64,000 nt of DNA from a bacterium (GTDB lineage Bacteria > Patescibacteriota > Patescibacteriia > 2-01-FULL-39-33), in assembly GCA_029558735.1 (NCBI GenBank), contig JAKQDP010000070.1, positions 42,700 to 106,699 of the forward strand, given 5' to 3'. This document shows positions 1 through 63,319 of the stretch, piece by piece. Under the pieces are notes generated by a model that saw only the letters and a list, made by a program, of their open reading frames with translations, did no database searches and had not been told where the DNA came from. Numbering within the stretch: the stretch's first letter is position 1; the number at the start of each line of letters is the position of its first letter. The position numbers and the translations under genes were made by a program.

Positions 1-2401
1 TAGTTTGAGAATCAGGATCAATTTCAGCGCTATTTTCATTAAGCAGCCCCTCATCAACCATCAAGGGATAATCAACTTCTTTAAAATCAGTTTCCTTGGG
101 CTGGCTAAAGCCGATTGCTTTAATCAATTGACTGCCGGCTGGCACATAAAATCGCAAATAACTACGACTGGGATAATTGGTAAAATTTTCATCAATTGGT
201 CCCAAATGACTGCGCCGAACAATCACTGAATCAATAACTGACCCGTCGACCATAATCTGAGCCTGATGATAAATTTGCTGTTTAATAATATTATCTGTTT
301 TACCGCCGCCAATATTAGTAGAAACCAAACTAAAGTAATCCTTGTCAGTATCTTTCATTCCTCCATGCCAATTATTACTGGCGATAAAATTCTGCAATTC
401 ATCATCAAAAGAATAAATCAAGATATCCTTGGCGGTCAAACCCTGCTCGATTGCCGCCAATAAATTCAAAAATTCATCCGGCTCAGCGTCAAAAACCTCC
501 GTCAATAATTTAGGCGCCAGATCACCAAGGATTTTTTTGGGCTGGTGTTCGCTATCATACTCAATTTCCACTTCTTTTTGAATCTCCATTTCAAAATTTG
601 CTGCCGTTATTTTTTTCTGATATTCAGGCAAATCAATATCGCCAATTACCGTCAACAATTGACTAAGCCAATCAGAATTGACGGCAATCACCCCATCAAT
701 GGTTGGCCCGCCGCTTTTATTATAAAACCAAGCGATTTTTTCCGCTGATCTAGGCCAATCCGGCCACCAATTGGCATCTTGAAACTCCCAACGCGGATTG
801 ATCAATTGTAGCGGTTGAGGCGACTGAACCAATTCTTTCATTCCGGCCCGGACATCATAAGTTCCGCCAGCCGGGATATCAATCTTATCAATATTACCGG
901 ATTTAAAATCAATCAAAGCAAAACTGCCCATAAAACCGCCCGTCGCCCTTAATTCGTTATCGTTTTGAAAAACAAACAAATAACGCCTCAATTGGTTATC
1001 ACCCAAAAAATTAACCGCAAAATCTATGGCTGAATTCAACTGCCTGAGACTGTTAATAAACAGCGGCAATTTTTCTGCCAAAACAGTAAATTGAGCCTGC
1101 TTATCCAAGGGTAAATTGCTCATCTTAATTTTGGTTAATTTGTCTTCGGCCAACTCCAATTCTCGCAACGCTACTTGACTATATTGGCCAAATGATTTTA
1201 TTTTCCCCGTTAAGCTTGAATCAGTATCGGCATTAATAGTTTCCAAGCCAACCAATAAATTTTCTCCCGCTAGTGACAAGTGGTCGCCCAAATCAAGCAT
1301 ATTTTTGCCACTTTTGAAAGTATTACCCAGGGGGAGCGTCTCGGCAATGACCGTTAAAAATGATTCAATATCGGTCAACTGTTCCTGGGCAGAAACAAAA
1401 TTCTGGTTAGCGGCCGCTAAGTGTTCCTTGGCTGAAGAAAAATTAAAAAACTTTAACTGCTCACTGGCCAAATCCAAATTCGACAACGCCTCTTCGGCTT
1501 GACCCAAAACCGCTCCTTTAGCCAATTTAATTTCCTGCCAATAATCAAAACTCTTAATTGGTAGGGCGATTATCAGGCATAAACCGACAAAAACAGCCAG
1601 CGGTTTCCAAAATAAACCAGCCGGGCCGGAATTATTAAAATCAACCACTGGCTGGACTGGCTTGACTTTGGCTAACGATGTTCGTTCGATTTGACCAATT
1701 CTAAAATCAACAATCGCTTGGCTGACAGCAGCCTTGGGCCGATAGTCAAAATCAATCACTTCATCATGATTGATAAAACCGATTTTCCCGGCCCACTCAT
1801 AAAGCAATTCCCCGGAAAACAAAATAATCTGATAGAAAAAATTACCTACAAAAATAAGCAAATTAATCACTGATACTTCTTGCCAGCGGCTGAGTGTTTT
1901 TGAGGTTTTTTTGCCTCGAATCAGCGGTAAATTCGGGGACAAATCAACTCGGCCCCAAAATTTTCTTTTCCAATAAGTTACCTTGGCTGAAATCAGTTTC
2001 AAAAAATTAATAAATTCACTTTTTTCGAAAGCCACCAATTCAAAAATATAAAACTTAGATAAAATATCCGCAGCCGGCAATTGGTCATAATAATTACCCT
2101 CTATTCCCGAGAGAGACGGCCTAACTCGCTCGATGAATTTGGCTTGGGATAAATCCAACAAATATGGCGAGCGATAAGAATCAAGAGGATTTTTGGCCAC
2201 AATGACGGAAACCTGCCGATTTTTACCGCCAATAGCAATTTTTTTATCATTAATTAAAAAATCCGTCTCGGCTGACGCTAAAAATCGACCAACACTCTGA
2301 TTGTTTTTAGTTGGTTTGATTTTATTCGCCCTCACCGAAACGGATGTTTTTTTTCTGGTTTTTTTAACTGGACTTTTGACGTCCTTGCTTGCCTTTGCCA
2401 C
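1..2401 (-). CDS. DUF4012-domain membrane protein. Partial: the C-terminal end runs off the window start. Probable GTG start near 2399-2401.
   Basis: Manual translation of the minus strand from ~2400 to 1 gives an uninterrupted ORF that is absent from the ORF track because there is no stop in the window. It contains the DUF4012 signature ...RRYLFVFQNDNELRATGGFMGSFALIDF... and a TM segment PAGLFWKPLAVFVGLCLIIALPI. An extended -10 (TGtTATAAT) lies upstream, around 2429-2437 on the minus strand. Confidence 0.55.
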   Translation of the reverse strand, partial: MAKASKDVKSPVKKTRKKTSVSVRANKIKPTKNNQSVGRFLASAETDFLINDKKIAIGGKNRQVSVIVAKNPLDSYRSPYLLDLSQAKFIERVRPSLSGIEGNYYDQLPAADILSKFYIFELVAFEKSEFINFLKLISAKVTYWKRKFWGRVDLSPNLPLIRGKKTSKTLSRWQEVSVINLLIFVGNFFYQIILFSGELLYEWAGKIGFINHDEVIDFDYRPKAAVSQAIVDFRIGQIERTSLAKVKPVQPVVDFNNSGPAGLFWKPLAVFVGLCLIIALPIKSFDYWQEIKLAKGAVLGQAEEALSNLDLASEQLKFFNFSSAKEHLAAANQNFVSAQEQLTDIESFLTVIAETLPLGNTFKSGKNMLDLGDHLSLAGENLLVGLETINADTDSSLTGKIKSFGQYSQVALRELELAEDKLTKIKMSNLPLDKQAQFTVLAEKLPLFINSLRQLNSAIDFAVNFLGDNQLRRYLFVFQNDNELRATGGFMGSFALIDFKSGNIDKIDIPAGGTYDVRAGMKELVQSPQPLQLINPRWEFQDANWWPDWPRSAEKIAWFYNKSGGPTIDGVIAVNSDWLSQLLTVIGDIDLPEYQKKITAANFEMEIQKEVEIEYDSEHQPKKILGDLAPKLLTEVFDAEPDEFLNLLAAIEQGLTAKDILIYSFDDELQNFIASNNWHGGMKDTDKDYFSLVSTNIGGGKTDNIIKQQIYHQAQIMVDGSVIDSVIVRRSHLGPIDENFTNYPSRSYLRFYVPAGSQLIKAIGFSQPKETDFKEVDYPLMVDEGLLNENSAEIDPDSQT

Positions 2402-2517
2402 CGTGTTTAAAGTTATAAAACTTTTTTTATTATAACATAAAACAATAATTAAAAACAACTACCAACCAATTGGGGATAAAATAAATTTTTTAAGCTCAGG
2501 TCGCCATCAAGAAATAA

Positions 2518-3675
2518 CTAATTTCCTTTAAAAATTTGACGATAAATATTCAAAGTGTTTCTAGCTAAAACAGACCAAGAATATCTTTTTAGATTCTCCC
2601 GTCCGCGTCTAATTAGATCCTCTCTTAATAAATGATCATGTAAAACGGTTTTAATTTTTTGAGTTATTTCGTAGGGATCATTGGGATCAAAAAATAAAGC
2701 GCTCTGTCCAAGAATTTCCGGCAAACAGGTGGCATTGGAACTGACCACCGGCAAGTCATAACTTTGCGCCTCTAGCGGCGGCAAGCCAAAGCCCTCAATC
2801 AAACTGGGAAAAACATATGCTTCGGCGCCGGCATACAAGCAGGCCAAATCATTATCATCAACAAATCCAGTTAATATCACCCGACCAGTTAAGCCGCTGT
2901 CGTCAATTTGCTGTTTTAATTTTTGATAAAAAAATGTTTCTTTACCGACTAAAACCAACTGTAATTGGTCGTGATCTTGAATCAAATACCTAAAGGCATG
3001 GAGCAAATTATCCAAATTTTTATGAGGGTAGGCCGAACCAACATAGAGCAGATAGTTATGGTTCAAATTGAAGCGTTCCAATACTTGCCGGCAATCACTA
3101 GAACGATCAAGCGGCGGATCATAGCCCTCATAAGTAATATTGATTTTTTCCGGTCGGATTTTAAGTGAATTAACAATATCATCTTTGCTAAATTGGGAAA
3201 CAGTAATAATGGTCGCCGCTCGTTTAGCCGCTGATTTGACAGTTAAACGATAGAAAAAAAGTTTTAATCGATAAAGAACCAATGGTAAAGTAGTGGCCCG
3301 GCTATCAGGATAATGAGAAATAATCAAATCATGAATAGTCACTACAAATGGCCGACGATAAAACCAAGGCACATTAAAATGAGGAAAATGAACCAAATCC
3401 AATTTATATTTAGCAAGAAGATAGGGCAATCGCAGTTGCTCTTTCACCGAATAAACCGAATAATCGGCTAAAACCTTTTTAAAATTAGCGCCGGGTACTT
3501 CAAACACAGCAAAACCGGCTCGGTCCAAAAAAATAAAATACTCATTTTTTCCGTCAATTGCCGCCAAACCTTCAATTAATTTCTGGATATAGCGACCAAT
3601 GCCGGCATGGCCGGGTCCATATAACCTGGCGTCAATACCAATTTTTAAGTGAGTTGTTGACTGATCAACTTTCAT
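2518..3675 (-). CDS. Glycosyltransferase, family 1 (GT4-like)
   Basis: C-terminal GT1 motif EGFGLPPLEAQSYDLPVVSSNATCLPEI. Sits in a sugar-transferase cluster. Confidence 0.8.
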   Translation of the reverse strand: MKVDQSTTHLKIGIDARLYGPGHAGIGRYIQKLIEGLAAIDGKNEYFIFLDRAGFAVFEVPGANFKKVLADYSVYSVKEQLRLPYLLAKYKLDLVHFPHFNVPWFYRRPFVVTIHDLIISHYPDSRATTLPLVLYRLKLFFYRLTVKSAAKRAATIITVSQFSKDDIVNSLKIRPEKINITYEGYDPPLDRSSDCRQVLERFNLNHNYLLYVGSAYPHKNLDNLLHAFRYLIQDHDQLQLVLVGKETFFYQKLKQQIDDSGLTGRVILTGFVDDNDLACLYAGAEAYVFPSLIEGFGLPPLEAQSYDLPVVSSNATCLPEILGQSALFFDPNDPYEITQKIKTVLHDHLLREDLIRRGRENLKRYSWSVLARNTLNIYRQIFKGN

Positions 3676-4793
3676 AATTCTTGTTCAAAAATTTGTAAAG
3701 TCTTTCTAGCGGTTTTCTGCCAACTGAACTGTTGAGCGCGCTCCAAGCCCTGATTAATAAGCTGCGCCCGAAAACGGCTATCAGTCCGTAAACAATTAAT
3801 AGCTGCCACTATTTCTCCCTGATTATAGGGGTCAACCAATAACCCCGCGCGATCAACTACCTCCAATTGAGAAGAATTATTGGCCGCGATCACCGGACAG
3901 CCGCAGGCCATCGCCTCCATAATCGGCAAACCAAACCCTTCATAATATGACGGGTAAAGAAAAATTTCCGCTAAATTATATAAAGCCGGTTTATCGGCTT
4001 CGGCCACATAGCCAATTAATTTGATTCGCTTATCTTGATTAGCTAGGGTTCTGACCAATTTCGCTTTCCAACTCAACCCGCCGGCGATTACCAGGTGGTT
4101 ATCCCCCTCAATATTTTTAAAAGATTCTATAATAGTTTCAATATTTTTACGGGGCTCCAAATTGCCAAGATACAAAATAAATTTTTCCGGTAAATTATAC
4201 TTCGTCCTCACCGCCGCCAGAATTGGATCAGCTTTATCCAACTGACGATAGTGTTTACTAACACCCAACTGAACCACTCTAATTTTTTCAACGGGGATAC
4301 CTAATAAATCAACCAAATCTTCCTTAGTGTTATCGGAGTCAGCAATCAAAATATCAGCTTGTTTAATAACCCCCTTCCTTAAAACTAATTTTTGCCACAG
4401 TCGCATTTTCCAGGAAAAAAAATCGGAAAATTTTAAAAAAGATAAATCATGGACAACTAACACTCGCCGACAATTTGGGGACCAGGAAGCAAAATGCAGA
4501 TTGGGCAAGAAAAACAAATCCACCCCGCCAATCAGTTGGTCAAATTTGGGAAAATCAAAAAAATTAACCGCCAAATTAAATAGCTTATTTGGATAATTAA
4601 AGCCGCAATTAAAGGCATTGGTTTGGGAAAAATCTGGCACGGTAGTTTTTTTTCGAGAATTATAAAAAAGCAGATACTGATTTTTTTGATCGAGCGCCAA
4701 TAAATTTTCCAGTAAATGATAGGTATACCAAGACACCCCCGAATACCGATTATCCATCAATGACCGGATGTCGACCCCTATTTTCATCTCCAA
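3672..4793 (-). CDS. Glycosyltransferase, family 1
   Basis: GT1 motif YEGFGLPIMEAMACGCPVIAANNSSQLEVV. Overlaps the neighbour by 4 nt, a coupled-operon arrangement. Confidence 0.8.
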   Translation of the reverse strand: MEMKIGVDIRSLMDNRYSGVSWYTYHLLENLLALDQKNQYLLFYNSRKKTTVPDFSQTNAFNCGFNYPNKLFNLAVNFFDFPKFDQLIGGVDLFFLPNLHFASWSPNCRRVLVVHDLSFLKFSDFFSWKMRLWQKLVLRKGVIKQADILIADSDNTKEDLVDLLGIPVEKIRVVQLGVSKHYRQLDKADPILAAVRTKYNLPEKFILYLGNLEPRKNIETIIESFKNIEGDNHLVIAGGLSWKAKLVRTLANQDKRIKLIGYVAEADKPALYNLAEIFLYPSYYEGFGLPIMEAMACGCPVIAANNSSQLEVVDRAGLLVDPYNQGEIVAAINCLRTDSRFRAQLINQGLERAQQFSWQKTARKTLQIFEQEL

Positions 4794-5901
4794 TCTTAGT
4801 TAATAAATTAAATATTTTCTGCTTGAATGTCTCCAGACTAAATTGTTGGGCGTATTCTTTGATTTGCATCGGATTATAGCGTTGGGGCTCAAAACGAATT
4901 ATCCGGTCAGCCAATTCCTCCCAAATCTGTTCATCAAAAAATTCTCCGCTTAAGCCCTCCTTAACTGTTTCAGTGGCGCCACCGGCGCGATAAGCAATAA
5001 CTGGCCGCCCCGAAGCCATGGCTTCAATCGCGGTAATACCAAAATCTTCTTCTTGAGGATTCAAATAAGCGATACAATTGGCGAATAACTGTTTTTTGGT
5101 CGCATCGTCAATCTTGCCCAAAAATTGAACATTAGGTTTAGCCATTCTCTTCAAGATTTTAAGCTCCGGACCGATGCCAAACACTTTCAGTGGAATGCCC
5201 AACCGAGAAAATGCCCTGACCGCCAAATCAACTCGCTTATATGGCACCAGCCGGCCACCAGCCAAATAATATTTTTTAGGGTGGTTAGAAATAAAAAACT
5301 CCTCCACCGCCACCGGCGGATAAATCACCTCGCTGTTGCGGTTATAATATTTTTTAATTCGATTTTTGACTGTCTGAGAATTGGCCACAAAGTAATCCAC
5401 CCGATCAGCCGCCAACCGGTCCCATTGTCGCAGTTTTCTTAAAGTAAGCGGTAATATCAATTTAATCACCGAATTAACCCGCAACTCTTTGATATAAAAA
5501 TAGGTATCCATCCAAAGAAATCTGGTTGGCGTATGGCAGTAACAAATATGAACACTGTCCGGCCTGGTAATCACTCCTTTGGCGAAAGAAGAGGCGCTGG
5601 AAATAACCACATCATAATCCATCAGATTATAATTTTCCGTTGCTAAGGGCATCAATGACAAATACCACTGGTATTTGGAAACTCCCAAAGGAATATTCTG
5701 TAAAAAAGAAGTTCGAACATCCTGATCGTGGAAAAAATTATTGGTTCGTCTTCGGTCAAAAATCAAAGTAAAAATTGGCGCCTGGGGAAAGAATTCTTTA
5801 AGCACCTTAACGACCTGCTCAGCTCCGCCATCTTGAGCTAAGTGATCATGAACTAAAGCAATCTTTAATCGACCGCTCGGGGTGAAATTAGAACTGGTCA
5901 T
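4750..5901 (-). CDS. Glycosyltransferase, family 1
   Basis: GT1 motif EEDFGITAIEAMASGRPVIAYRAGGATETV. Confidence 0.8.
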   Translation of the reverse strand: MTSSNFTPSGRLKIALVHDHLAQDGGAEQVVKVLKEFFPQAPIFTLIFDRRRTNNFFHDQDVRTSFLQNIPLGVSKYQWYLSLMPLATENYNLMDYDVVISSASSFAKGVITRPDSVHICYCHTPTRFLWMDTYFYIKELRVNSVIKLILPLTLRKLRQWDRLAADRVDYFVANSQTVKNRIKKYYNRNSEVIYPPVAVEEFFISNHPKKYYLAGGRLVPYKRVDLAVRAFSRLGIPLKVFGIGPELKILKRMAKPNVQFLGKIDDATKKQLFANCIAYLNPQEEDFGITAIEAMASGRPVIAYRAGGATETVKEGLSGEFFDEQIWEELADRIIRFEPQRYNPMQIKEYAQQFSLETFKQKIFNLLTKIGDENRGRHPVIDG

Positions 5902-5981
5902 ATATGTCCAGTTTAGCTAATTTACGATTCTTTGGCAAACAAAAACGACTCATCGCAACATGAGCCGTTAATCAAATGGCC

Positions 5982-6161
5982 TTATCTGATTATTTCCAAC
6001 CAGAAAATCGGCCAACACAGACAAACCAGCGCTAAACTGGCCAGTACTGTTCTTCTTCTGACAACGCTCGGATTCTGATGATAAGCGATTGTCAGCAAAT
6101 AAACAAACAAGCTACCGCCCACAGCTAAATAAAATCCCAATAACAGCCAAATCCATAACAT
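5982..6161 (-). CDS. Small hydrophobic membrane protein, 59 aa (MLWIWLLLGFYLAVGGSLFVYLLTIAYHQNPSVVRRRTVLASLALVCLCWPIFWLEIIR)
   Basis: Strong RBS (aaaGGAGGgtaaaaaATG) and two predicted TM helices. Lies between the GT gene and the priming transferase and is below the ORF-track size cutoff. Confidence 0.3.
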   Translation of the reverse strand: MLWIWLLLGFYLAVGGSLFVYLLTIAYHQNPSVVRRRTVLASLALVCLCWPIFWLEIIR

Positions 6162-6184
6162 TTTTTACCCTCCTTTGTTTTCGC

Positions 6185-7588
6185 TTATTCCGCCTGGCGT
6201 CGCCTTAAAATAGCCACTGGAGTTTTAAACAAAATCATTAAATCCAATTTGGGACTCCAATTTTCCATATACCAAGTATCCAAGCGTATTTCTTCTTCAA
6301 AATCAAGATCAGAACGGCCAGAAACCTGAGCCATGCCGGTAATGCCCGGCCGAATGGTCAGTACTTTCCGATGGTGATTCTGATATTTAGCCACCTCCTC
6401 AACTTCATGGGGCCGTGGACCAACCAAACTCATTTTACCCACTAAAACGTTAAATAATTCCGGCAATTCATCAATACTAAAACGGCGAATAAATCGTCCC
6501 ACTCGAGTCACTCGGGGATCTTTTTCAAATTTCATCATCGGAGTACCGGCTCGAAGGTTTTTCTGATGATTTAAAAAATTTTCATCAAACCGATATTTAT
6601 GGGCGTCTTTAACCATTGAACGAAACTTAAAATACTTGAATGGCCGACCCAAAGCGCCAATCCGCTGATAAGAAAAAAATAACGGCCCGACAGAATCAAG
6701 TTTAATCGCCACTGCCGTTAAAATGAAAATTGGCGAGAGTAAGATGATTAATAACAGGGCAACAATAATATCAAACAACCGCTTATAAACCCGCCCCCAA
6801 CCATCCAAACGCGTCTTCTTAACTTCAACAATCGGCAAGCCGGCAATAGTATTGATTTCAAAATTGGTAATCGGCCAATCAAAAATATCAGCAACAAATT
6901 TTAGGGTGATATGATTGATATAAGAAAAATCATTCAAACGATTAATTTCCTTACTGGACAATTGGGCCGTAACCACTAAAATCTCATCAAACTTATCCTG
7001 TTCGACCAATTGAGTCAAACGCGCCTCTGTATTCTTTTGAAAATCAGGAAAAGTCTCCACCACCCGATAGCCAGATTTCTTATCTTGCTGAAAATTAGCC
7101 GCCGCCTCCTGAGCTAATTGACCCTGGCCAATAATGATCAACCGGTGGACCCCCCAGCCGTAATAATATAAAAAATGCTGGACAAAACGAACAATTAGCC
7201 GGCCAGCGACCACTAAAACGATACTAAACAACCAACCAGCAATAATAATAAATCGAGAATCAAATAAACTACGGCTGAAAAAGAAACCAAACATTAATAG
7301 CATCACCGCCGTTGAACAACCCAAAATTATTTTATAGAATTCATCAATCGCCCGTCTGGTACCGCGCATTGAATACAGACCGGCAAAAGCAAAGCTAACT
7401 AGCCAAAGTAAAGCCACCATTAAAACAATCCGTAAATAACTGTCAAAACGCAAATCAAAAATCACCGGCCTAATTTCCTGCACCGGCTCCCAATAGCGAG
7501 CATAAAAAGAAATAATTCCGGCCAACACCACCATCAAATAATCAATTGGCACCAAACTGGCAGAAATGGCAATTTCTGATCTTTTCAT
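6185..7588 (-). CDS. Polyprenyl-phosphate glycosyl-1-phosphate transferase (WbaP/exopolysaccharide priming transferase family, bacterial sugar transferase)
   Basis: Multi-TM N-terminus plus the conserved C-terminal bacterial sugar transferase domain (VGPRPHEVEEV...IRPGITGMAQVSGRSDL). Confidence 0.8.
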   Translation of the reverse strand: MKRSEIAISASLVPIDYLMVVLAGIISFYARYWEPVQEIRPVIFDLRFDSYLRIVLMVALLWLVSFAFAGLYSMRGTRRAIDEFYKIILGCSTAVMLLMFGFFFSRSLFDSRFIIIAGWLFSIVLVVAGRLIVRFVQHFLYYYGWGVHRLIIIGQGQLAQEAAANFQQDKKSGYRVVETFPDFQKNTEARLTQLVEQDKFDEILVVTAQLSSKEINRLNDFSYINHITLKFVADIFDWPITNFEINTIAGLPIVEVKKTRLDGWGRVYKRLFDIIVALLLIILLSPIFILTAVAIKLDSVGPLFFSYQRIGALGRPFKYFKFRSMVKDAHKYRFDENFLNHQKNLRAGTPMMKFEKDPRVTRVGRFIRRFSIDELPELFNVLVGKMSLVGPRPHEVEEVAKYQNHHRKVLTIRPGITGMAQVSGRSDLDFEEEIRLDTWYMENWSPKLDLMILFKTPVAILRRRQAE

Positions 7589-7699: not shown

Positions 7700-8110
7700 G
7701 TCCAAACAAGCTGGATGACTGCTCGGTTTTAGCTTTAAACGCTTTGACCGGGAGGAAAGTCCGAACACTCTTTCCGTTTTTTTTTCGGAATGTCGTGGTA
7801 GTGGCTAACGGCCACCCAGGTCGTCGCAAGGCGGTCTGAGGACTAGTTCCACAGAGACAATACTATCCCGAGCAATCGGGACAAATGTGAAAAGTGTGAA
7901 GGTGTTTTAAATTGGGCTAGAGATATCTCCTCAACTTAAAGCTACTTCACTCGGCCTCTGGCGACAGAGTGCCCGTGGTAAACTCTACCTAGTGCAACCC
8001 CAAATCTAGTCGGGGGCTCGAGCTGGCCAGTAATGACCAGCCCAGATAGATAGTCATCGCTCTGATTATTGTCAGAGTACAGAATTCGGCTTATAGGCTT
8101 GTTTGGACCA
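7700..8110 (+). ncRNA. rnpB: RNase P RNA (bacterial type A-like)
   Basis: Conserved P4 5' strand GGAGGAAAGTCCG at ~7751-7763. GGTAAACTCtACC motif at ~7975. Conserved 3' element ACAGAAttCGGCTTATaGG at 8079-8097. P1 pairing: ccaaacaagc at 7703-7712 pairs with gcttgtttgg at 8096-8105. The 61-aa ORF at 7942-8127 on the opposite strand is spurious. Confidence 0.8.
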
Positions 8111-39289: not shown

Positions 39290-39372
39290 AACTTTTGTTT
39301 GCTTTAATTATAGCAAAAAAAGCATAATCAAGCGATAAGCTTTTAAAATTTTATTTATCTTAATCGATTAAA

Positions 39373-39927
39373 TTAATATTTTGCAAATTTATCAGCTAAA
39401 TGAGGGTACTTTCTTTTTAGTTTCTTCCATTCGGCACGCGGCAGGTCTGTTAACCATATTTTACCTTGGATTTCAAATTCTGGTGGGAAAACTAGTCCAT
39501 CGGCTGATTTGAGGCGTTGAAGCCAAAGATACCCCCCAATAGTTGTAGGGAATATTACCCCCTCGGCTGATTTAAGGTGTTGAAGCCAAAGATCCCCCCA
39601 AACGATTGTGGGGAGGGTTACACGGTTGGCTGATTCAAGGCGCTCAAGTTCAAGGCTCCCGCCAACAGTTGTAGGGAATATTACCCCATCGGCTGATTTA
39701 AGGCCATTAAGATAAAGGCTCCCAATAACTGTTGTAGGGAAGATTACCCCATCGACTGATTCACGCCCATAAAAATTAAGATTCCCATAATGATAAACAA
39801 TGTTGCCAGACAGGGCCTCGTGATTGGTTAAACTGATTTGTGATTCCTGACAGTCAAGAACTAGGGCTAGATCTTTTCTAATATTTCGGCCAGCTTGTAA
39901 TTTATTAATTCTTAGGTCTTTGTTCAT
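39373..39927 (-). CDS. Repeat protein with ~20-aa LRR-like repeats (L..LKSADGVIFPTT.GGSL.L)
   Basis: Five consecutive repeats are visible in the protein, matching ~60-bp tandem repeats in the DNA. Resembles BspA/LRR_5-type repeats. Confidence 0.5.
   Translation of the reverse strand: MNKDLRINKLQAGRNIRKDLALVLDCQESQISLTNHEALSGNIVYHYGNLNFYGRESVDGVIFPTTVIGSLYLNGLKSADGVIFPTTVGGSLELERLESANRVTLPTIVWGDLWLQHLKSAEGVIFPTTIGGYLWLQRLKSADGLVFPPEFEIQGKIWLTDLPRAEWKKLKRKYPHLADKFAKY
39480..39790. repeat. Tandem ~60-bp coding repeats (5 copies) within the LRR-like gene
   Basis: Repeated ccatcggctgatttaaggc..ttaag...aggctccc.a...gttgtagggaa.attacc units. Confidence 0.5.
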
Positions 39928-39990
39928 GCCGAAATACCTGATAGGGCTTTCGATTTCATAAAGGAAAACGAGCTCGCTTTTGTTTAACGT

Positions 39991-41247
39991 CTAGCCTTGC
40001 CTGGTTTTGTTTTCTATTTCCGTAAGCTTCTTCATGTCTTGAGATTTGCCTTCGTATTGCTCACCATTGCCAAATTCAGCCAGTTCGGCACTTGCCACTT
40101 CGCTCATATAGGGATCAAGATTCTGTTTATGGGCAATGCCTCTCATTTCAGCAATTTGATCGCCTTTGGCATGAATGGCGATTCGGGGGAAAGTCGGATT
40201 GCCTTTCTCATCATTGGAATAATAGATATAGAGATCGCCGGTTTTTAAATATTCGTTGGCTGCTCCTTTGCCGGCAATGCACAGGCCGGTACCCTTGCCT
40301 TTGAGGGTTTTAACCACTTCGCTTGTATTCGATCCTTGTTTATATTTTACCCACTTACCTTCGGTAACAGGCAAAAGCTCTTGGGGAATCGGATTGAATG
40401 ATTCCATGGCCCAGGCATAGAGCTTGGCAAAACTTTCCTGTTCCAGATATGTTTTAAATCTTTCTCTTTCCTTTTCGGAAATATCATAGCCGAATTTATG
40501 GCCTTGCCCTTTATGTTTTTCGACCAGGGCATCAGTTACGTAGCGCAAAGCTTCCGGATGGAGATCGGGAAATTTTTTAAGGGAATTTTTTGTTCGGCGG
40601 GGAAATTTGCCGAAAGTTTTTTCTTCGATTGTTTCTGCTGTCAATTCTGTAGCTTCTTTTTTTTCTCCACGAGCCTCTTTTGCCCAATTCTGGGGCTTTT
40701 CATACTCCTGGAGATTAACTATGCTGCGAAAAATCCAGTATTTAAGATAGTCGGGAATGTCGCCTGAAAGCTCGTCATCCAGAAAGTAGTCAACCCATTC
40801 TTCAAGCGAGCCTCTTTGGTCTTCGATCAGTGTCTCAGCGTGATTTCTTTTGTATTTTTCTTTTTCCTCTTCATCCATATCTTCCCAATCAGCAGACAGC
40901 CCATGCTCGTAAAGCTCGCGATAGAAAGAACCCATGCCGCCTTTTTCGTCTTTTTCTCGCCAGTAGTTGTCGGGAATACTTTCATATTTGGTAATGAATT
41001 TATCCATAATAATGGATTTGAATCTCTCGATGGCGCGCTCCCTTGATCTGTCATCCTTGATTTCGGCAAGTAGATTTTTATGCTCTGTGAACCTATCTAG
41101 GTAATTTTGAATCAGGGACGCAAAATCACCGGATACTTTTTTGCCGGTCCTTCTTTCGGTTCTTTTTTTGGCGCTCATCACTTCCTCGGCCTTGCCCAGG
41201 CCGGGGAATTTATTGAGGAATTCCGGATTTTTAAAGCTCTCTGGCAT
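39991..41247 (-). CDS. Hypothetical protein, 418 aa, highly charged (K/E/D-rich), no TM and no recognisable domain
   Basis: Long ORF with good codon-usage continuity. No motif recognised by eye. Confidence 0.5.
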   Translation of the reverse strand: MPESFKNPEFLNKFPGLGKAEEVMSAKKRTERRTGKKVSGDFASLIQNYLDRFTEHKNLLAEIKDDRSRERAIERFKSIIMDKFITKYESIPDNYWREKDEKGGMGSFYRELYEHGLSADWEDMDEEEKEKYKRNHAETLIEDQRGSLEEWVDYFLDDELSGDIPDYLKYWIFRSIVNLQEYEKPQNWAKEARGEKKEATELTAETIEEKTFGKFPRRTKNSLKKFPDLHPEALRYVTDALVEKHKGQGHKFGYDISEKERERFKTYLEQESFAKLYAWAMESFNPIPQELLPVTEGKWVKYKQGSNTSEVVKTLKGKGTGLCIAGKGAANEYLKTGDLYIYYSNDEKGNPTFPRIAIHAKGDQIAEMRGIAHKQNLDPYMSEVASAELAEFGNGEQYEGKSQDMKKLTEIENKTRQG

Positions 41248-41386
41248 ATTATTTAAAGCTTAATTATATGCCTTCATTTTAGCCCAAAAAGAGGGATTTT
41301 ACAATTTCTGCGAGGTCGAACCGCCGTATCCTCGGCGGCTGGCGGCGGATTATTTTTATTATTTATGGAAGAGTGATAGGATTTAA

Positions 41387-41466
41387 GAATCCTAACTCTC
41401 ATTAAATAATTTAAATAGACACCTTTTGGGTGCCTATTTAAATTATCAAACTGCGGGACTAGGATT
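41387..41466. repeat. 80-bp direct repeat, copy 1; contains a duplicate of the last 16 nt of tRNA-Gln
   Basis: gaatcctaactctcattaaataatttaaatagacaccttttgggtgcctatttaaattatcaaactgcgggactaggatt is identical to 41605-41684. Confidence 0.7.
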
Positions 41467-41604
41467 TCCGCCTCGTCTTTTTGCCAAAAAGCAAAAAGAC
41501 TTGTTGTACTGGGCAGCGCCGGATGCTACGCCAGCTCGCATCCGGCGACATTCGGCTTCTCTTTTCGTCTTCCGCCGAAAAGCTTGCCTCACTTCTGCCC
41601 GTTC

Positions 41605-41684
41605 GAATCCTAACTCTCATTAAATAATTTAAATAGACACCTTTTGGGTGCCTATTTAAATTATCAAACTGCGGGACTAGGATT
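41605..41684. repeat. 80-bp direct repeat, copy 2; overlaps the genuine 3' end of tRNA-Gln
   Basis: Identical to copy 1. Period 218 bp. Confidence 0.7.
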
Positions 41685-41739
41685 CGAACCTAGGCTACCT
41701 GGGCCAGAACCAGGCGTCCTACCACTAGACTATCCCGCA
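41669..41739 (-). tRNA. tRNA-Gln (anticodon CTG)
   Basis: Acceptor TGCGGGA/TCCCGCA with U1-A72 and discriminator G (Gln identity). Anticodon stem-loop CCTGG-TTCTGGC-CCAGG. T-arm CTAGG-TTCGAAT-CCTAG. Confidence 0.75.
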
Positions 41740-41789
41740 TTATCCAATAAAGCCCGTTAAATTTAACATAAAAACATCAAAAAATCAAG

Positions 41790-43553
41790 CTAAAACATAC
41801 TGGCCACTTCCTGGGCCGCGTCTTTAGGTTTATTAAGATTGACCAAATTGCTCTCCGGTTGCGTTCCGGTTGACGGACCAATCTCAATCTGACCCGCATT
41901 ATTAACTATTGACCCCGATTCAATAATTACCGGCGCCTGATTAGCCGTCTCAACCGGATTAAGATCATCTTTGACTACGCCACAAACAATCACTTCCGCC
42001 TTGATTACCTCGGAAATCACCTTTTCTACCACGCGCCGATTTTTCATCTCTTCCAATCGATCTTTATAAAAAACGCTCTGAACTCCAATTTCCAACATAT
42101 TATCCCGACACTTTAACGGCTGACTGATTTTGAGTAGAGCCGACAAAGTATAGTTCTCCTCCAACAGCTTATCGGCAATTTCCGGCCAACAATGTTTTAC
42201 CTTCTTGAAGCTGATCGCCGAATGAGGTTTGAGTTTATCTTCATCGGAGATGAAATTGACTTCCACCTCCGGCTGACATTTCTTTTCTTTTTTCAGCTCC
42301 GTATTGGCCAAGGGTAGGTCTTTTTTGTCTTTACGCGGACTAAGATAAGAAATTTTCTCTTTAATTTTTTCTTTTACTGACTGATCGCCACCACCACTGC
42401 CACCACCACCCTCATCGTTATCTGATTGTTGAACTGTTTCCTGACAAAGCTGAACAATCGCCAATTCCAGGGGAAATTGAGGAATAAAAGATGTTTTAAT
42501 CTCCTGTTTTTTGAGATTAAATAAATCAATCATTGCCATTAAAACAGTATCATCAAAGCGCTGGGATAATTTTTGCGCTTCCCGAGCGGTTGTTTCGTCA
42601 AGCTCAAGACCAAAATCTCCCAAAGCCCCACTGACTCTTATTAACATCACTTTACGCAAAAACTCCAAGAGATTGTCAACAAAAACGAACAAATCCATAC
42701 CGTTATTGGCTAGATTATTGATCAATTCAATTCCGGCGGTAGCATTCTTATCCAACAAAAAATTGAGCAGTTTAATAATTGAATCAAAATCAGAACGAGG
42801 CAAAACGATTTCCGCCTCAGCAATGCCGATATCATCACCTAAAATCAAAATTTTTCCGAGCAGGCTTTCAGCGTCCCGAACACAGCCCTCGGAGTGAATG
42901 ACAATATTGGTCAACACCTCTTCAGCCACGCGCTTGCCTTCTTGGGCCACTATTTGTCTGAGTTTTTTCTTTAATTCCTCCGCTGTCACCTTATGAAAAT
43001 CAAAGCGCTGACAACGAGAAATAATCGTCTGAGGAATTTTATGAATTTCGGTGGTGCACAAAATGAAAACCACGTGGGCCGGCGGCTCTTCCAAGGTTTT
43101 GAGCAAGGCATTGAAAGCGGAAATGGACAACATATGAACCTCATCAATGATAAACACCTTATACTTGCTTTGATTGGGTGTAAACCGGGAATTTTCAATG
43201 ATATTTTCCCGAACATTGTCCACGCCAGTGTGCGAAGCCGCGTCAATCTCAATAATATCAATGGCACTGCCGGCGATAATCGCCCGGCAGGAGGAACATT
43301 GATTGCAGGGCTCGCTCTGATCAGCCGGCCGACTTTCACAATTAATCGCTTTGGCCAGTAGTCGAGCCAACGTGGTCTTACCCAAGCCGCGCGGACCGCA
43401 AAAAAGATAAGCCTGACCGATCTCCGACCGTTCAATCTCATGTTGCAAAGTAACTTTGATATGGTTTTGACCGATGACTTCAGCAAAAGTCTGCGGCCGA
43501 TATTTGCGATATAATACTGACATATTGGCAAAGAAGATGGGCCGACCTGACAA
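41790..43553 (-). CDS. dnaX: DNA polymerase III subunit gamma/tau
   Basis: RKYRPQTFAEVIGQ, AAA+ Walker A GPRGLGKTT, a Cys4 zinc module CNQCSSC and Walker B/sensor motifs. The start appears to be TTG. The 181-aa ORF at 42986-43531 in another frame is spurious. Confidence 0.9.
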   Translation of the reverse strand: MSGRPIFFANMSVLYRKYRPQTFAEVIGQNHIKVTLQHEIERSEIGQAYLFCGPRGLGKTTLARLLAKAINCESRPADQSEPCNQCSSCRAIIAGSAIDIIEIDAASHTGVDNVRENIIENSRFTPNQSKYKVFIIDEVHMLSISAFNALLKTLEEPPAHVVFILCTTEIHKIPQTIISRCQRFDFHKVTAEELKKKLRQIVAQEGKRVAEEVLTNIVIHSEGCVRDAESLLGKILILGDDIGIAEAEIVLPRSDFDSIIKLLNFLLDKNATAGIELINNLANNGMDLFVFVDNLLEFLRKVMLIRVSGALGDFGLELDETTAREAQKLSQRFDDTVLMAMIDLFNLKKQEIKTSFIPQFPLELAIVQLCQETVQQSDNDEGGGGSGGGDQSVKEKIKEKISYLSPRKDKKDLPLANTELKKEKKCQPEVEVNFISDEDKLKPHSAISFKKVKHCWPEIADKLLEENYTLSALLKISQPLKCRDNMLEIGVQSVFYKDRLEEMKNRRVVEKVISEVIKAEVIVCGVVKDDLNPVETANQAPVIIESGSIVNNAGQIEIGPSTGTQPESNLVNLNKPKDAAQEVASMF

Positions 43554-44255: not shown

Positions 44256-46805
44256 TCAAAGTACTCTTTTGGGCTTGGCTGCTAATTGCCCTAATTTGGC
44301 CTGATCGATTATTTCCTGGACCACCAATTGACGATCACGGCCATATTTTAACCGTGATAAACCACGTAAAAGGCTCACATTATCGATGTTTTTATCGTCC
44401 GACAAGAGCCGACTGGCCATATTGAAAGCCTCGGAAGCGGTGTTATCTATCAACAGTCTAACATAAGCGTTAAATTTTTCAATATTCATCAAATCGTATT
44501 CGCTGACCCGCGGTCCCAGCTGTTTGGCCACCACCTCGGCATCGTCAACACCAATTCTAAAACTAATTAAGGTGCCGACATTGCCAAAGACCGCATCCTT
44601 GACCCGACTGTCACCATTGACTACCAATTGGGCGATATATTGATGCGCCATAATCAAATTTAATTTGTATTTGCGAGCTTCAGCCAAGATAACCGAAATA
44701 CTATCAGTAATAAAATTTTGAAACTCATCAATATACAGATAAAAACTTTTCCGCTTGGCTTCCGGTAAGTCAGCGCGGGACAAGGCGGCCATCTGTAGTT
44801 TGGACACTGCAATCAATCCCAACAGATTACTGTTGGTTTCGCCGATTTTGCCCTTTGATAAATTCATTAGTAAAATTTTGCCCTGATCCATTACTTGACG
44901 AAAATTAATGCCGGACTGACGTTGGCCAATGATGTTTCTCATCATTTCATTTTCCACGAACCGACCGGTCTTGGAAATCACATAAGACAACATATCGGCG
45001 GCGGTCGAACCTTTTTGCGAGGCGGTGTATTCCCGCTCCCAAAAATCTTTGACTAGAATATCCTTGACATGCGCCAATTTCTGCTGCCGATAACCCTCAT
45101 CAGTAAAAATCCGCCCCAATTCCACCAAAGTACCGGGGTTATCCTGATCAGCCATTAGCGCCAATAAGGCATTTCTCATATAATGCTCAAACATCGGGCC
45201 GGCCATAGCCGGGTCAGGCAATAATTTGTAAAAAATATTTATCATTTCCTGGGTGGCAAAATCCATTTCTTGAGTGGTCTTGGCTTCCAGCATATTCAGA
45301 CCGATCGGCCGCTCAACATCGGACGGATCAAAAATAATCACGTCTTCAAATCGCTCTTTGGGAATGTAGGGTAAAATATCTTCAATCAATGAGCCGTGCG
45401 GATCGACAATGCAGACGCCCTTACCTTGCTTAATATCTTGAATTGCCAAATTAGCCATCAGATAAGATTTACCGGAGCCGGTCATACCAATAATATACAT
45501 ATGACGCTCACGGTCACGATCTTTGATTCTGATTAACTGCTTATTGCCACGATAAAAACTATCCCCCAAAATCAGACCCTCCTGAGGTATTTCCTGAGGC
45601 GGGGCCAAGCGCCGCGCCTGCAACCAACGCAAATGAGGGATATCTGTATTAAGTAAGGGCAAATGCCAAAGGGAAGCCATTTCTTCAGTATTTAAAACCA
45701 AGACCGATTTCTCATCAAAATTGCGGTAAATAAAATCATTAATAAATTTCGGCCCCGAGCCTTTGATGACTGCCTTAAAGCCATTGGCATATTCATAATT
45801 GGAGTATTGAGAAAAAGAATTGGCAATCTGGCGCAAAATATTTTTGGCCTGATTTTCATCGGCCGCAAAAGACACCAGCCGAATATTGACATCCAGACCG
45901 GCCTTGGACGCTTTTTCTTCGATTGAACGCATCATCTGCTCTTCCATTGGCGACAGCCGATACTGAGGCAGGCCGGCCTTATCAGCCGCCTGATCCTTAT
46001 TGGCATAAAACCAATCCGCCGGCTTGCCAATCACCCCCAAGAGACCACCCGAACCGTTACTGGCGGCGTTTAAAGCCTGCTTTAAATTTTTACCTTGCTG
46101 CATCTCTGAAGCCACCTTGACTCCCCGCTTGCGCCAAGTCCCTTTAGCCGAGCGCATTACCAATTGAATGGCGGCCATCTGGCCATTGGACAATTTGGAC
46201 AGCGTGCTGAGCAGTGAATTCAAAGGATCAGCATCAATATTTTTGTAAGTCAGAATGGGAAACATTTTATCCTTAATCAGCTTCAAATAGCCAACTGCCA
46301 CAAACCCTTGGGGCTGAAAAATATTATAATCATCCACCTCATCAATTTGACAATAAGGATAATGGGACAAAAACTGCTGTTTAATATAATCGGTCAGATA
46401 CTGAGGAACGGCAATATAAAAAGTAATCAAACCATCCGTACCAAACACAATTTCAAACGACCAATGGTCGTGCCGACCAAACAACCACGGCCGCCAGCCG
46501 CGATCGGCCCGCAAGCCGCCCAAACTGGAATAAAAATTATCAATCCCGGCCAAAATCTCTTTGGGCTCCTTGGCTTTGTCTTCTTGGTCCAAAGAGCGTT
46601 GGGGAATAGCCAACCGAAACACTTTTTTATGATAAGCCGGCGGAATTATCTGATAACGAGCAAATAATAATTTTAAAACCCACAAAACCAACAAGACAAA
46701 AAATAAAACCAACAACAAAACAACCACCAGCCCCAGCCAGGGATACAGTTGAACAACCAAAGAACCAACTTCCGGCGACACTTGATAATTCAGGCCATAA
46801 TCCAT
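44256..46805 (-). CDS. Membrane-anchored VirB4/TraC/TrbE-like (HerA/FtsK superfamily) AAA ATPase
   Basis: N-terminal TM helices. Mid-protein Walker A HMYIIGMTGSGKSYLMANL followed by VCIVDPHG. Walker B YLYIDEFQNF. Then ARKYKLNLIMAHQ, typical of VirB4/CagE/DUF87 ATPases. 849 aa. Confidence 0.6.
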   Translation of the reverse strand: MDYGLNYQVSPEVGSLVVQLYPWLGLVVVLLLVLFFVLLVLWVLKLLFARYQIIPPAYHKKVFRLAIPQRSLDQEDKAKEPKEILAGIDNFYSSLGGLRADRGWRPWLFGRHDHWSFEIVFGTDGLITFYIAVPQYLTDYIKQQFLSHYPYCQIDEVDDYNIFQPQGFVAVGYLKLIKDKMFPILTYKNIDADPLNSLLSTLSKLSNGQMAAIQLVMRSAKGTWRKRGVKVASEMQQGKNLKQALNAASNGSGGLLGVIGKPADWFYANKDQAADKAGLPQYRLSPMEEQMMRSIEEKASKAGLDVNIRLVSFAADENQAKNILRQIANSFSQYSNYEYANGFKAVIKGSGPKFINDFIYRNFDEKSVLVLNTEEMASLWHLPLLNTDIPHLRWLQARRLAPPQEIPQEGLILGDSFYRGNKQLIRIKDRDRERHMYIIGMTGSGKSYLMANLAIQDIKQGKGVCIVDPHGSLIEDILPYIPKERFEDVIIFDPSDVERPIGLNMLEAKTTQEMDFATQEMINIFYKLLPDPAMAGPMFEHYMRNALLALMADQDNPGTLVELGRIFTDEGYRQQKLAHVKDILVKDFWEREYTASQKGSTAADMLSYVISKTGRFVENEMMRNIIGQRQSGINFRQVMDQGKILLMNLSKGKIGETNSNLLGLIAVSKLQMAALSRADLPEAKRKSFYLYIDEFQNFITDSISVILAEARKYKLNLIMAHQYIAQLVVNGDSRVKDAVFGNVGTLISFRIGVDDAEVVAKQLGPRVSEYDLMNIEKFNAYVRLLIDNTASEAFNMASRLLSDDKNIDNVSLLRGLSRLKYGRDRQLVVQEIIDQAKLGQLAAKPKRVL

Positions 46806-63189: not shown

Positions 63190-63312
63190 TTTTATAAATA
63201 AATTAATAAAAAAATCCGCGTTGCCGCAGACGATAATCGCTTAATTTAAGCTTTTTTCCTCGGCAGGTCTTATTGACGACGCCTGCTGTCTGCGGAATTT
63301 AATTTAGGTTGA
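63190..63312 (-). promoter_or_regulatory. Structured 5' leader of rplJ (candidate L10 autoregulatory leader)
   Basis: Long-range pairing ccgcagac...gtctgcgg enclosing ~60 nt, lying between the promoter and the rplJ start. Confidence 0.35.
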
Positions 63313-63319
63313 TGCGTTT

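Follow-up and report, generated by a model that had tools for sequence, protein, structure and literature searches.

Integrative elements such as tyrosine-integrase islands and prophages target tRNA genes from the T loop to the 3′ end, and the integrated DNA is bounded by the direct repeats attL and attR. TnpB omega-RNAs (reRNAs) and the guides of tRNA-homing CRISPR-associated transposons combine a scaffold with a 3′ segment that is identical to the DNA target. The system closest in design to the locus presented here is RtT of E. coli K-12, where the tRNA gene tyrV, of the tyrT/tyrV operon, has behind it 178-bp repeats that carry the annotation rttR (RtT RNA, Rfam RF00391) and make up 3.14 tandem units. 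Each of these repeats ends in AAUCCUUCCCCCACCACCA, the sequence of tRNA-Tyr from A58 to the CCA, and in the Rfam consensus an internal GGGGAAGGAU pairs with the copied T-stem strand while the acceptor 3′ end stays unpaired. RtT has been described for decades without a mechanism; it is said to have a part in how the tyrT transcript is processed and perhaps also in the stringent response (bioRxiv 10.1101/2024.07.17.603846). In the Patescibacteria, group I introns are common in tRNA genes (PMC13011429).

The locus under study lies in a 64,000-nt stretch of patescibacterial DNA, referred to throughout as the window. Along the direction of transcription, dnaX (43553..41790) is followed by tRNA-Gln, a first copy (A) of an 80-nt repeat, a 138-nt spacer (B, 41467-41604) and a second copy (A′), beyond which lie a gene for a 418-aa protein (41247..39991), a gene for a 184-aa repeat protein, SNase, mgtE, mazG, tRNA-Ala, tRNA-Val and uvrB. 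The features of the repeat and its surroundings are as follows.

41669..41739, minus strand: tRNA-Gln(CTG), intact and with no encoded CCA (ARAGORN; Rfam tRNA, 67 bits)
41605..41684, minus strand: proximal 80-nt copy, comprising tRNA positions 58-73, the hairpin trailer and the start of the RNA element (inverted T-arm piece)
41624..41664, minus strand: terminator-like hairpin behind the tRNA, with an 18-bp stem (41624-41641/41647-41664); terminator-like by shape only
41387..41466, minus strand: distal 80-nt copy, comprising the element tail and the duplicated hairpin trailer (hairpin 41406-41446)
41346..41425, no strand assigned: imperfect palindrome with its centre near 41385, from pairwise alignment
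39991..41247, minus strand: 418-aa gene, outside the repeat-bounded unit, with a promoter-like site at 41304..41276
39358..41480, no strand assigned: segment of 2,123 bp absent in L031 and L037, which belong to the same species as the window

A reading of the sequence alone had described the exact 80-bp direct repeat at 41387-41466 and 41605-41684 and had stated that it includes the last 16 nt of tRNA-Gln(CTG); both statements are confirmed, the latter by ARAGORN and Rfam. The upper copy consists of these 16 nt (41669-41684, from T-loop A58 to the discriminator G) and 64 nt of 3′ trailer, the spacing of the copies is 218 nt, and identity ends abruptly on both sides. The hairpin within the trailer has a G.U pair on the minus strand only. 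By blastn-short, no further copy of either the repeat or the spacer is present in the 64-kb window. Across ten independent assemblies, produced with different assemblers from data held at ENA, JGI and NCBI, the 542-nt intergenic region is identical in eight; the other two (L001 and L004) show 2 substitutions, both in the hairpin of the tRNA-proximal copy. An assembly artefact might be suspected because the sequence is metagenome-derived, but all ten assemblies have the structure, some of them built with k-mers longer than the repeat, and that explanation has been ruled out for all practical purposes. Since the structure recurs in ten assemblies and L001 and L004 hold 2-nt variants, the repeat is real and not brand new. 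The two copies are probably homogenised in most strains, and the 2-nt difference suggests later gene conversion between them.

Comparison with the sister species L011, whose DnaX is 80% identical and which shares with the window the gene order from corA to the 418-aa homologue, separates the repeat into an old and a young part. In L011, tRNA-Gln is followed by a different hairpin, a homologue of B and then AATCCTAGTCCCGCAGTT again, so that 18 nt are repeated at a spacing of 227 nt. Judged from these sequences, the ancestral repeat is 16-18 nt, and the remaining 64 nt duplicate the hairpin trailer in the window species alone, since its sister repeats only the 18 nt. Beyond the distal copy lies an inverted, ~80% identical copy of that copy's end (41346-41425), and this adjacent imperfect palindrome suggests that the extra 64 nt may have been made by a hairpin-mediated template switch. 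A neutral local duplication by slippage or unequal crossing-over, without function, would fit the extra 64 nt as a recent local copy with an imperfect palindrome alongside, and likewise the homogenisation of the copies in most strains. It accounts for the 64-nt extension only, however, and the tandem duplication that had been offered as one of two explanations does not agree with the layout, which is A-B-A rather than A-B-A-B: there is no second B, and what comes after the second A bears no relation to B. Since the core and the tRNA tail are also conserved with covariation across distant hosts, neutral duplication is refuted for both of these parts, and as an account of the whole locus it is very improbable.

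The spacer itself is where the locus departs from a simple repeat. On comparative sequence evidence, the interval that separates the copies encodes a conserved structured RNA on which purifying selection acts and which accumulates compensatory changes, and its predicted parts are given below.

41450..41615, minus strand: conserved structured RNA element, complete, ~165 nt (model R1, 182.9 bits)
41601..41612, minus strand: antiT (UAGGAUUCGAAC on the RNA strand), a 12-nt perfect inverted copy of the T-loop and T-stem 3′ strand
41606-41612, minus strand: 5′ strand of the closing helix P0, part of antiT
41467..41604, minus strand: element core, equal to the spacer, with P1 (41595-41600/41511-41516), the P2a hairpin (41561-41582), P3 (41517-41547) and P4 (41475-41499)
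41451..41466, minus strand: 3′ tail of the element, AAUCCUAGUCCCGCAG, a copy of tRNA-Gln positions 58-73

Beyond the window and L011, five members of the family came to light when public genomes and metagenomes were scanned for sequence patterns and the matches extended with blastn and with a covariance model, R1. Scans with an 18-mer and a 20-mer yielded L017, L028, L029 and L030 among chance matches in coding sequence. A junction-only pattern in genome contigs and a two-anchor pattern in metagenome contigs gave no match, though both patterns match the window, and the collections scanned in this way evidently lack the window species. In total there are seven distinct members, namely the window, L011, L017, L028 (which is the same contig as L033), L029, L030 and L040. 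All are Patescibacteria and they represent four or five lineages. At every locus examined, cmsearch with R1 detects a single copy of the element.

In the fold, P0 closes the element through pairing of antiT with the first 7 nt of the tail, an invariant P1 (GGGCAG/CUGCCC) leads to a three-way junction with P2/P2a and P3, and the hairpin P4 follows; the acceptor part of the tail is unpaired. Over the seven distinct sequences, standard pairs fill 92.7% of cells, as against 32-45% when the 3′ partners are slid, and double-sided changes occur in 20 of 44 pairs, as against 3-4 with the partners slid. None of 500 shuffles attained the observed values of pairing and covariation, and the fold was checked independently with MAFFT/RNAalifold. 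The G.U pairs of the element are located on the tRNA strand. The first 60 nt of B are the same in L011 as in the window, while the tRNA hairpin and the region past the distal copy are strongly diverged, unlike the spacer. Two perfect hairpins had been pointed out within the spacer beforehand, gtctttttgc/gcaaaaagac at 41475-41499 and gccggatgc/gcatccggc within 41517-41547; both are present, and both carry compensatory changes between the window and L011. Four of the sequences, those of the window, L011, L017 and L028, share a 28-nt stretch, GAUUCGAACGGGCAGAAGUGAGGCAAGC, without any change.

No Rfam 15 family matches the element, and a search of 41300-41700 at E<=10 gave only noise. Several known classes were considered and set aside. 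A 53-aa ORF (41459-41620, minus strand) covers the spacer, yet its frame is disrupted with respect to L011 by indels of +5 and +1 nt although the nucleotides are conserved, so that B is not coding. A relation to 5S rRNA was raised by the collinear words CGAAC, CAGAAGUGA, CGCCGAUGG and AUGCGAG; the 5S model gives no match, the helix topology differs, and the words are treated as chance. ARAGORN finds no tmRNA or tRNA-like domain, and the element has neither a T loop nor a 5′ acceptor strand. A group I intron would likewise be a structured RNA tied to tRNA genes in the same phylum, but such introns break the anticodon loop (35/36 and others) and need splicing, whereas tRNA-Gln is uninterrupted here and Intron_gpI has no match at E<=10. 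A MITE or IS-derived repeat was rejected because the ends vary with the partner tRNA and because there is one copy in 64 kb and one per locus.

The ends of the element are what tie it to the neighbouring tRNA gene. Its last 15-18 nt equal the 3′ end of the partner tRNA, from the A after GTTCG (T-loop A58) to the discriminator, and its first 9-13 nt are the reverse complement of the partner's T arm. The partner is tRNA-Gln(CTG) in the window and L011, tRNA-Gln(TTG) in L028, tRNA-Leu(TAA) in L029 and L040, and tRNA-Gly(TCC) in L030. In each of the six loci with a known partner, the direct repeat (15-31 nt) begins at A58. Since both strands of P0 derive from T-arm copies that are matched to the partner, P0 covaries with tRNA identity, reading AUU/AAU with Gln, AAU/AUU with Leu and AGU/ACU with Gly. 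In five loci the gap between the tRNA and the element is 43-56 nt, and both are on the same strand. The gap in L011, L029, L030 and L040 is likewise occupied by a hairpin that follows the tRNA, equivalent to that of the window yet unrelated to it. In L011, the inverted T-arm piece at 6794-6806, CCAUGAUU, suits the L015-type T stem (CAUGG) better than the species' own (CUAGG); here the tail seems to have followed a change of the T stem, while the 5′ inverted piece did not.

Two pairs of loci bear on how the element is kept or lost. L029 and L040, in which NrdG is 66% identical, both have the element after tRNA-Leu, and in both the hairpins have diverged beyond recognition. They nonetheless keep the element and its tail, including one helix with a double change from GU/AC to AC/GU, and the acceptor part of the tail is unpaired yet identical to the partner tRNA even in these old copies. 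Since terminator-like hairpins and flanks diverge while the RNA is conserved, long-term retention of the element is indicated. Within the window species, L031 and L037 lack 39358-41480, which spans the 3′ end of the element, the tail, the distal copy A′, the 418-aa gene and the 184-aa gene; their identity to the window is 98.6% on the dnaX side and 92.7%, then 82%, on the other side. With L011 as the outgroup this absence is a deletion, and since these strains are without the 3′ end of the element, the element is dispensable. In L031 the truncated element has 4 substitutions in 124 nt against a background of 1.4%, a difference that is not significant (p ~0.1).

The remaining loci are more intricate. 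In L028, dnaX is followed by tRNA-Gln(UUG), an element of ~5 kb, a degenerate copy of tRNA-Gln, a hairpin and then the RNA element, whose tail matches the functional tRNA-Gln 5 kb away at 17 of 17 positions. The ~5-kb element (2051-7239) encodes a large serine recombinase, a rolling-circle Rep (REP_ORF2-G2P) and a ClpP/SDH-like protease, and includes a LOOT RNA (RF03000). The tail in L017 resembles a tRNA 3′ end that includes CCA; upstream lies a degenerate relic of tRNA-like sequence, and no tRNA was found within 8 kb of the element. Thoeris-TIR and 8xMP genes are located upstream of that relic.

When set beside RtT, the element proves to have the same architecture. Both lie directly behind a tRNA gene on the same strand, both end in a copy of the tRNA 3′ end, both respect the A58 boundary (GAGU|AAUCC in RtT and GGUUCG|AAUCC in the element), and both have a closing helix with an unpaired acceptor tail. 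The two are nonetheless without homology in sequence or structure: RF00391 matches only the E. coli locus, and model R1 scores rtT at <=6 bits. RtT forms tandem units, includes the CCA and overlaps the small ORF tpr, whereas the element is single and has a different core. The element also lacks the CCA, except in L017, and has several tRNA partners, unlike RtT. A tRNA-tailed layout of this kind was known before only from E. coli RtT. The 16 nt of tRNA within the repeat are among the features that define an RNA family.

Comparison with attL and attR leads to a mixed result. The sequence-only reading had identified the duplicated piece as the segment copied by integrative elements that target the T loop, and the start at A58 in all six informative loci bears this out; a direct repeat from T loop to 3′ end, an intact tRNA and an indel bounded by the repeat are all shared with integrated elements. 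The repeat-bounded segment, by contrast, is only 218-227 bp, contains a conserved structured RNA in place of an integrase and cargo, and is stable at one locus across species. That no integrase is present had been noted as well, and it holds: none lies beside or between the repeats, the 138-nt interior is non-coding, and Pfam annotation of the neighbourhood reveals no recombinase adjoining the repeat. Candidates come no nearer than ~9 kb (an rve transposase, in some strains) and ~10 kb (a faint Y1_Tnp ORF). The former, of rve type, takes the place of the cysS side in L002, L003, L005 and L009 but not in L001, L004 and L008. The latter is an ORF of 133-171 aa in L001-L010 with faint matches to Y1_Tnp (IS200-like/RAYT-like), situated between uvrA and uvrC ~10 kb past the 418-aa gene.

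The repeat had been read as what may be left of attL and attR after a large tyrosine-integrase island decayed and lost its interior, and the genes for the SNase, the repeat protein and the 418-aa protein as cargo that survived. The classical att segment agrees with such an origin, as do the variation of the 418-aa and 184-aa genes between strains and the use of tRNA-Gln as an integration hot spot in L028. Decay, however, does not describe the interior, which is a conserved structured RNA with compensatory changes; a core conserved with fixed boundaries in seven loci is not the product of random decay. The repeat-bounded unit does not include the supposed cargo genes, and no strain lacks the SNase gene. 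Nor is the 418-aa protein the orphan it was thought to be, for it matches residues 1-412 of a widespread Patescibacteria family of ~620-680 aa, with 68% identity to a Kaiserbacteria protein, and corresponds to the N-terminal two-thirds of that family without its C-terminal ~250 aa. Homologues in L042-L045 adjoin genes for MetRS, ArgRS and IleRS, coming immediately behind the gene in the case of MetRS or ArgRS. The family is an ordinary one in Patescibacteria. Relatives with the same genes and a conserved unit, which had been named beforehand as evidence for a stable structural repeat, are largely what L011 provides, with its own 418-aa gene and a 227-bp unit. Overall, the island account is supported in part, by the boundary of the repeat and by what may be an empty site, while decay, cargo and an integrase are not borne out, and an island scar is accordingly held to be quite improbable.

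The 418-aa family, which contains no Pfam domain, was considered as a possible companion of the element and rejected, since neither a tRNA nor an element was found near the homologues in L042-L045. In L042 a diversity-generating retroelement (bAvd and RT) lies just downstream of the homologue; the C-terminal domain missing from the 418-aa protein may therefore be a target of such a retroelement.

The evidence on an empty site comes from more distant relatives. L012, L015 and L016, whose DnaX proteins are 57-60% identical to that of the window, are without the element, and in L012 and L015 tRNA-Gln adjoins dnaX on the opposite strand relative to the window. A flank of ~65 nt that directly follows tRNA-Gln in L015 follows the tail in L011 at ~85% identity. 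This flank is non-coding (TTTAAAACACT...TTATCTTACCTAATTTAAT...; L011 6967-7035, L015 4760-4847) and is absent from the window. Since the flank meets the tRNA directly in L015 and the tail in L011, the unit, comprising the 58-73 copy, the hairpin, antiT and the core, is by this alignment an indel bounded by the tRNA-derived repeat and placed between positions 57 and 58. A comparison with empty sites had been proposed earlier, and it supports this boundary without giving a direction: L015 could represent the state before insertion or a deletion between the repeats, both of which look alike, and its tRNA is inverted with respect to dnaX. In L012, a stretch of ~830 nt without a long ORF (2409-3241) lies upstream of tRNA-Gln; its DnaX is 60% identical to that of the window.

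With respect to the distribution as a whole, the distance of L028 (DnaX 38% identical to that of the window), the very few hosts that the exact-word scans found and the use of three tRNA species favour spread of the element through copying or insertion of some kind over descent of an ancient universal gene. A switch to a new tRNA by plain integrase crossover would give a chimeric tRNA, so that this route does not readily explain the spread. Searches for a free, phage or plasmid form in IMG/VR, a phage collection and a plasmid collection gave no true match; the single IMG/VR match (L014) is a chance one inside a reverse-transcriptase gene. Across the loci there is no conserved protein downstream of the element, the neighbouring ORFs being mutually unrelated and none of them TnpB-like.

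These observations raise the question of whether the unit is an active miniature (~220 bp) mobile or targeting module without an enzyme of its own, homing to tRNA T loops and rebuilding the tRNA on insertion, its partner enzyme being encoded elsewhere. In one version, a folded single strand in which P0 mimics the T-arm duplex would serve as the att site, as in CTX phage or integron attC; in another, a scaffold RNA would use its 3′ 15-18 nt as a guide, as TnpB omega-RNAs do, with GGTTCG as the adjacent motif. E. coli RtT would then be the domesticated relic of a similar event. Such a module would explain why the core is constant while the ends follow three tRNA species, why the boundary is constant at 57/58, and why the unpaired acceptor part of the tail is still tRNA-identical in the old copies of L029 and L040. 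The sporadic hosts (L028 has the element at 38% DnaX identity while the closer L012, L015 and L016 do not), the empty site in L015 and the 5-kb large-serine-recombinase element at the same tRNA in L028 point the same way. The resemblance to omega-RNAs and to guides of CRISPR-associated transposons extends to a ~130-150-nt scaffold, a 15-18-nt 3′ segment identical to the target and a conserved motif, and it is a resemblance only: the element has no adjacent effector gene, part of the would-be guide is base-paired (its first 7 nt in P0), and there is no Rfam or sequence similarity. A TnpB/IscB-type guide RNA would be expected beside its nuclease gene or overlapping it, and no such gene is present among the neighbouring ORFs. 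Against active mobility in general, no nuclease or recombinase recurs near the element from locus to locus and the proteins encoded downstream are mutually unrelated, there is a single copy per locus and none in the viral or plasmid collections, and the element has stayed resident at one locus across species in both the window/L011 and the L029/L040 pairs. An active module of this kind therefore seems rather unlikely.

The reading that is favoured, and that appears reasonably probable, is that of a compact RtT-like unit at the T loop of tRNA-Gln which carries a new conserved structured RNA with a tRNA-matched tail, the long repeat being the edge of the unit enlarged by the hairpin copy. Under this reading, a unit of ~220 bp would be lodged at T-loop position 57/58 of tRNA-Gln; it would hold a copy that replaces tRNA positions 58-73, along with a terminator-like hairpin and the conserved ~165-nt structured RNA. 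The two 80-nt copies may be kept alike by gene conversion. The RNA would be produced from the tRNA transcription unit, either by read-through or from a promoter inside the hairpin; among the loci scanned, a promoter-like site is seen in front of the element in L029 only. By analogy with what has been reported for RtT, the mimic of T stem and acceptor could let the tRNA 3′-end machinery set the 3′ end of the RNA. Site-specific insertion at the T loop, with the enzyme supplied in trans, may have carried the unit to different tRNAs.

A structured RNA outside Rfam is of interest in the Patescibacteria, whose small genomes retain little that is dispensable. Because the ends of the element track the neighbouring tRNA, whether Gln, Leu or Gly, some process must copy or select the T arm and acceptor strand into the RNA. 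RtT is the only other RNA known to be of such design. The existence of an unrelated family that shares its A58 boundary suggests that there is a general way to make or use tRNA-tailed RNAs, and offers a comparative handle on it. Should the unit turn out to be mobile, few known site-specific insertions would be as small. For genome annotation, a duplicated tRNA 3′ end alone is not evidence of a lost island.

Some further features of the window deserve mention. Upstream of dnaX lies a gene for an 849-aa DUF8128/TraG-VirD4-like ATPase (44256-46805, minus strand); since its position is shared by L011 and L015, it is probably not part of a conjugative element here. The window also contains an RNase P RNA of class A (7703-8109, plus strand, 158 bits) and a ribosomal protein L10 leader (63200-63313, minus strand, 49.7 bits).
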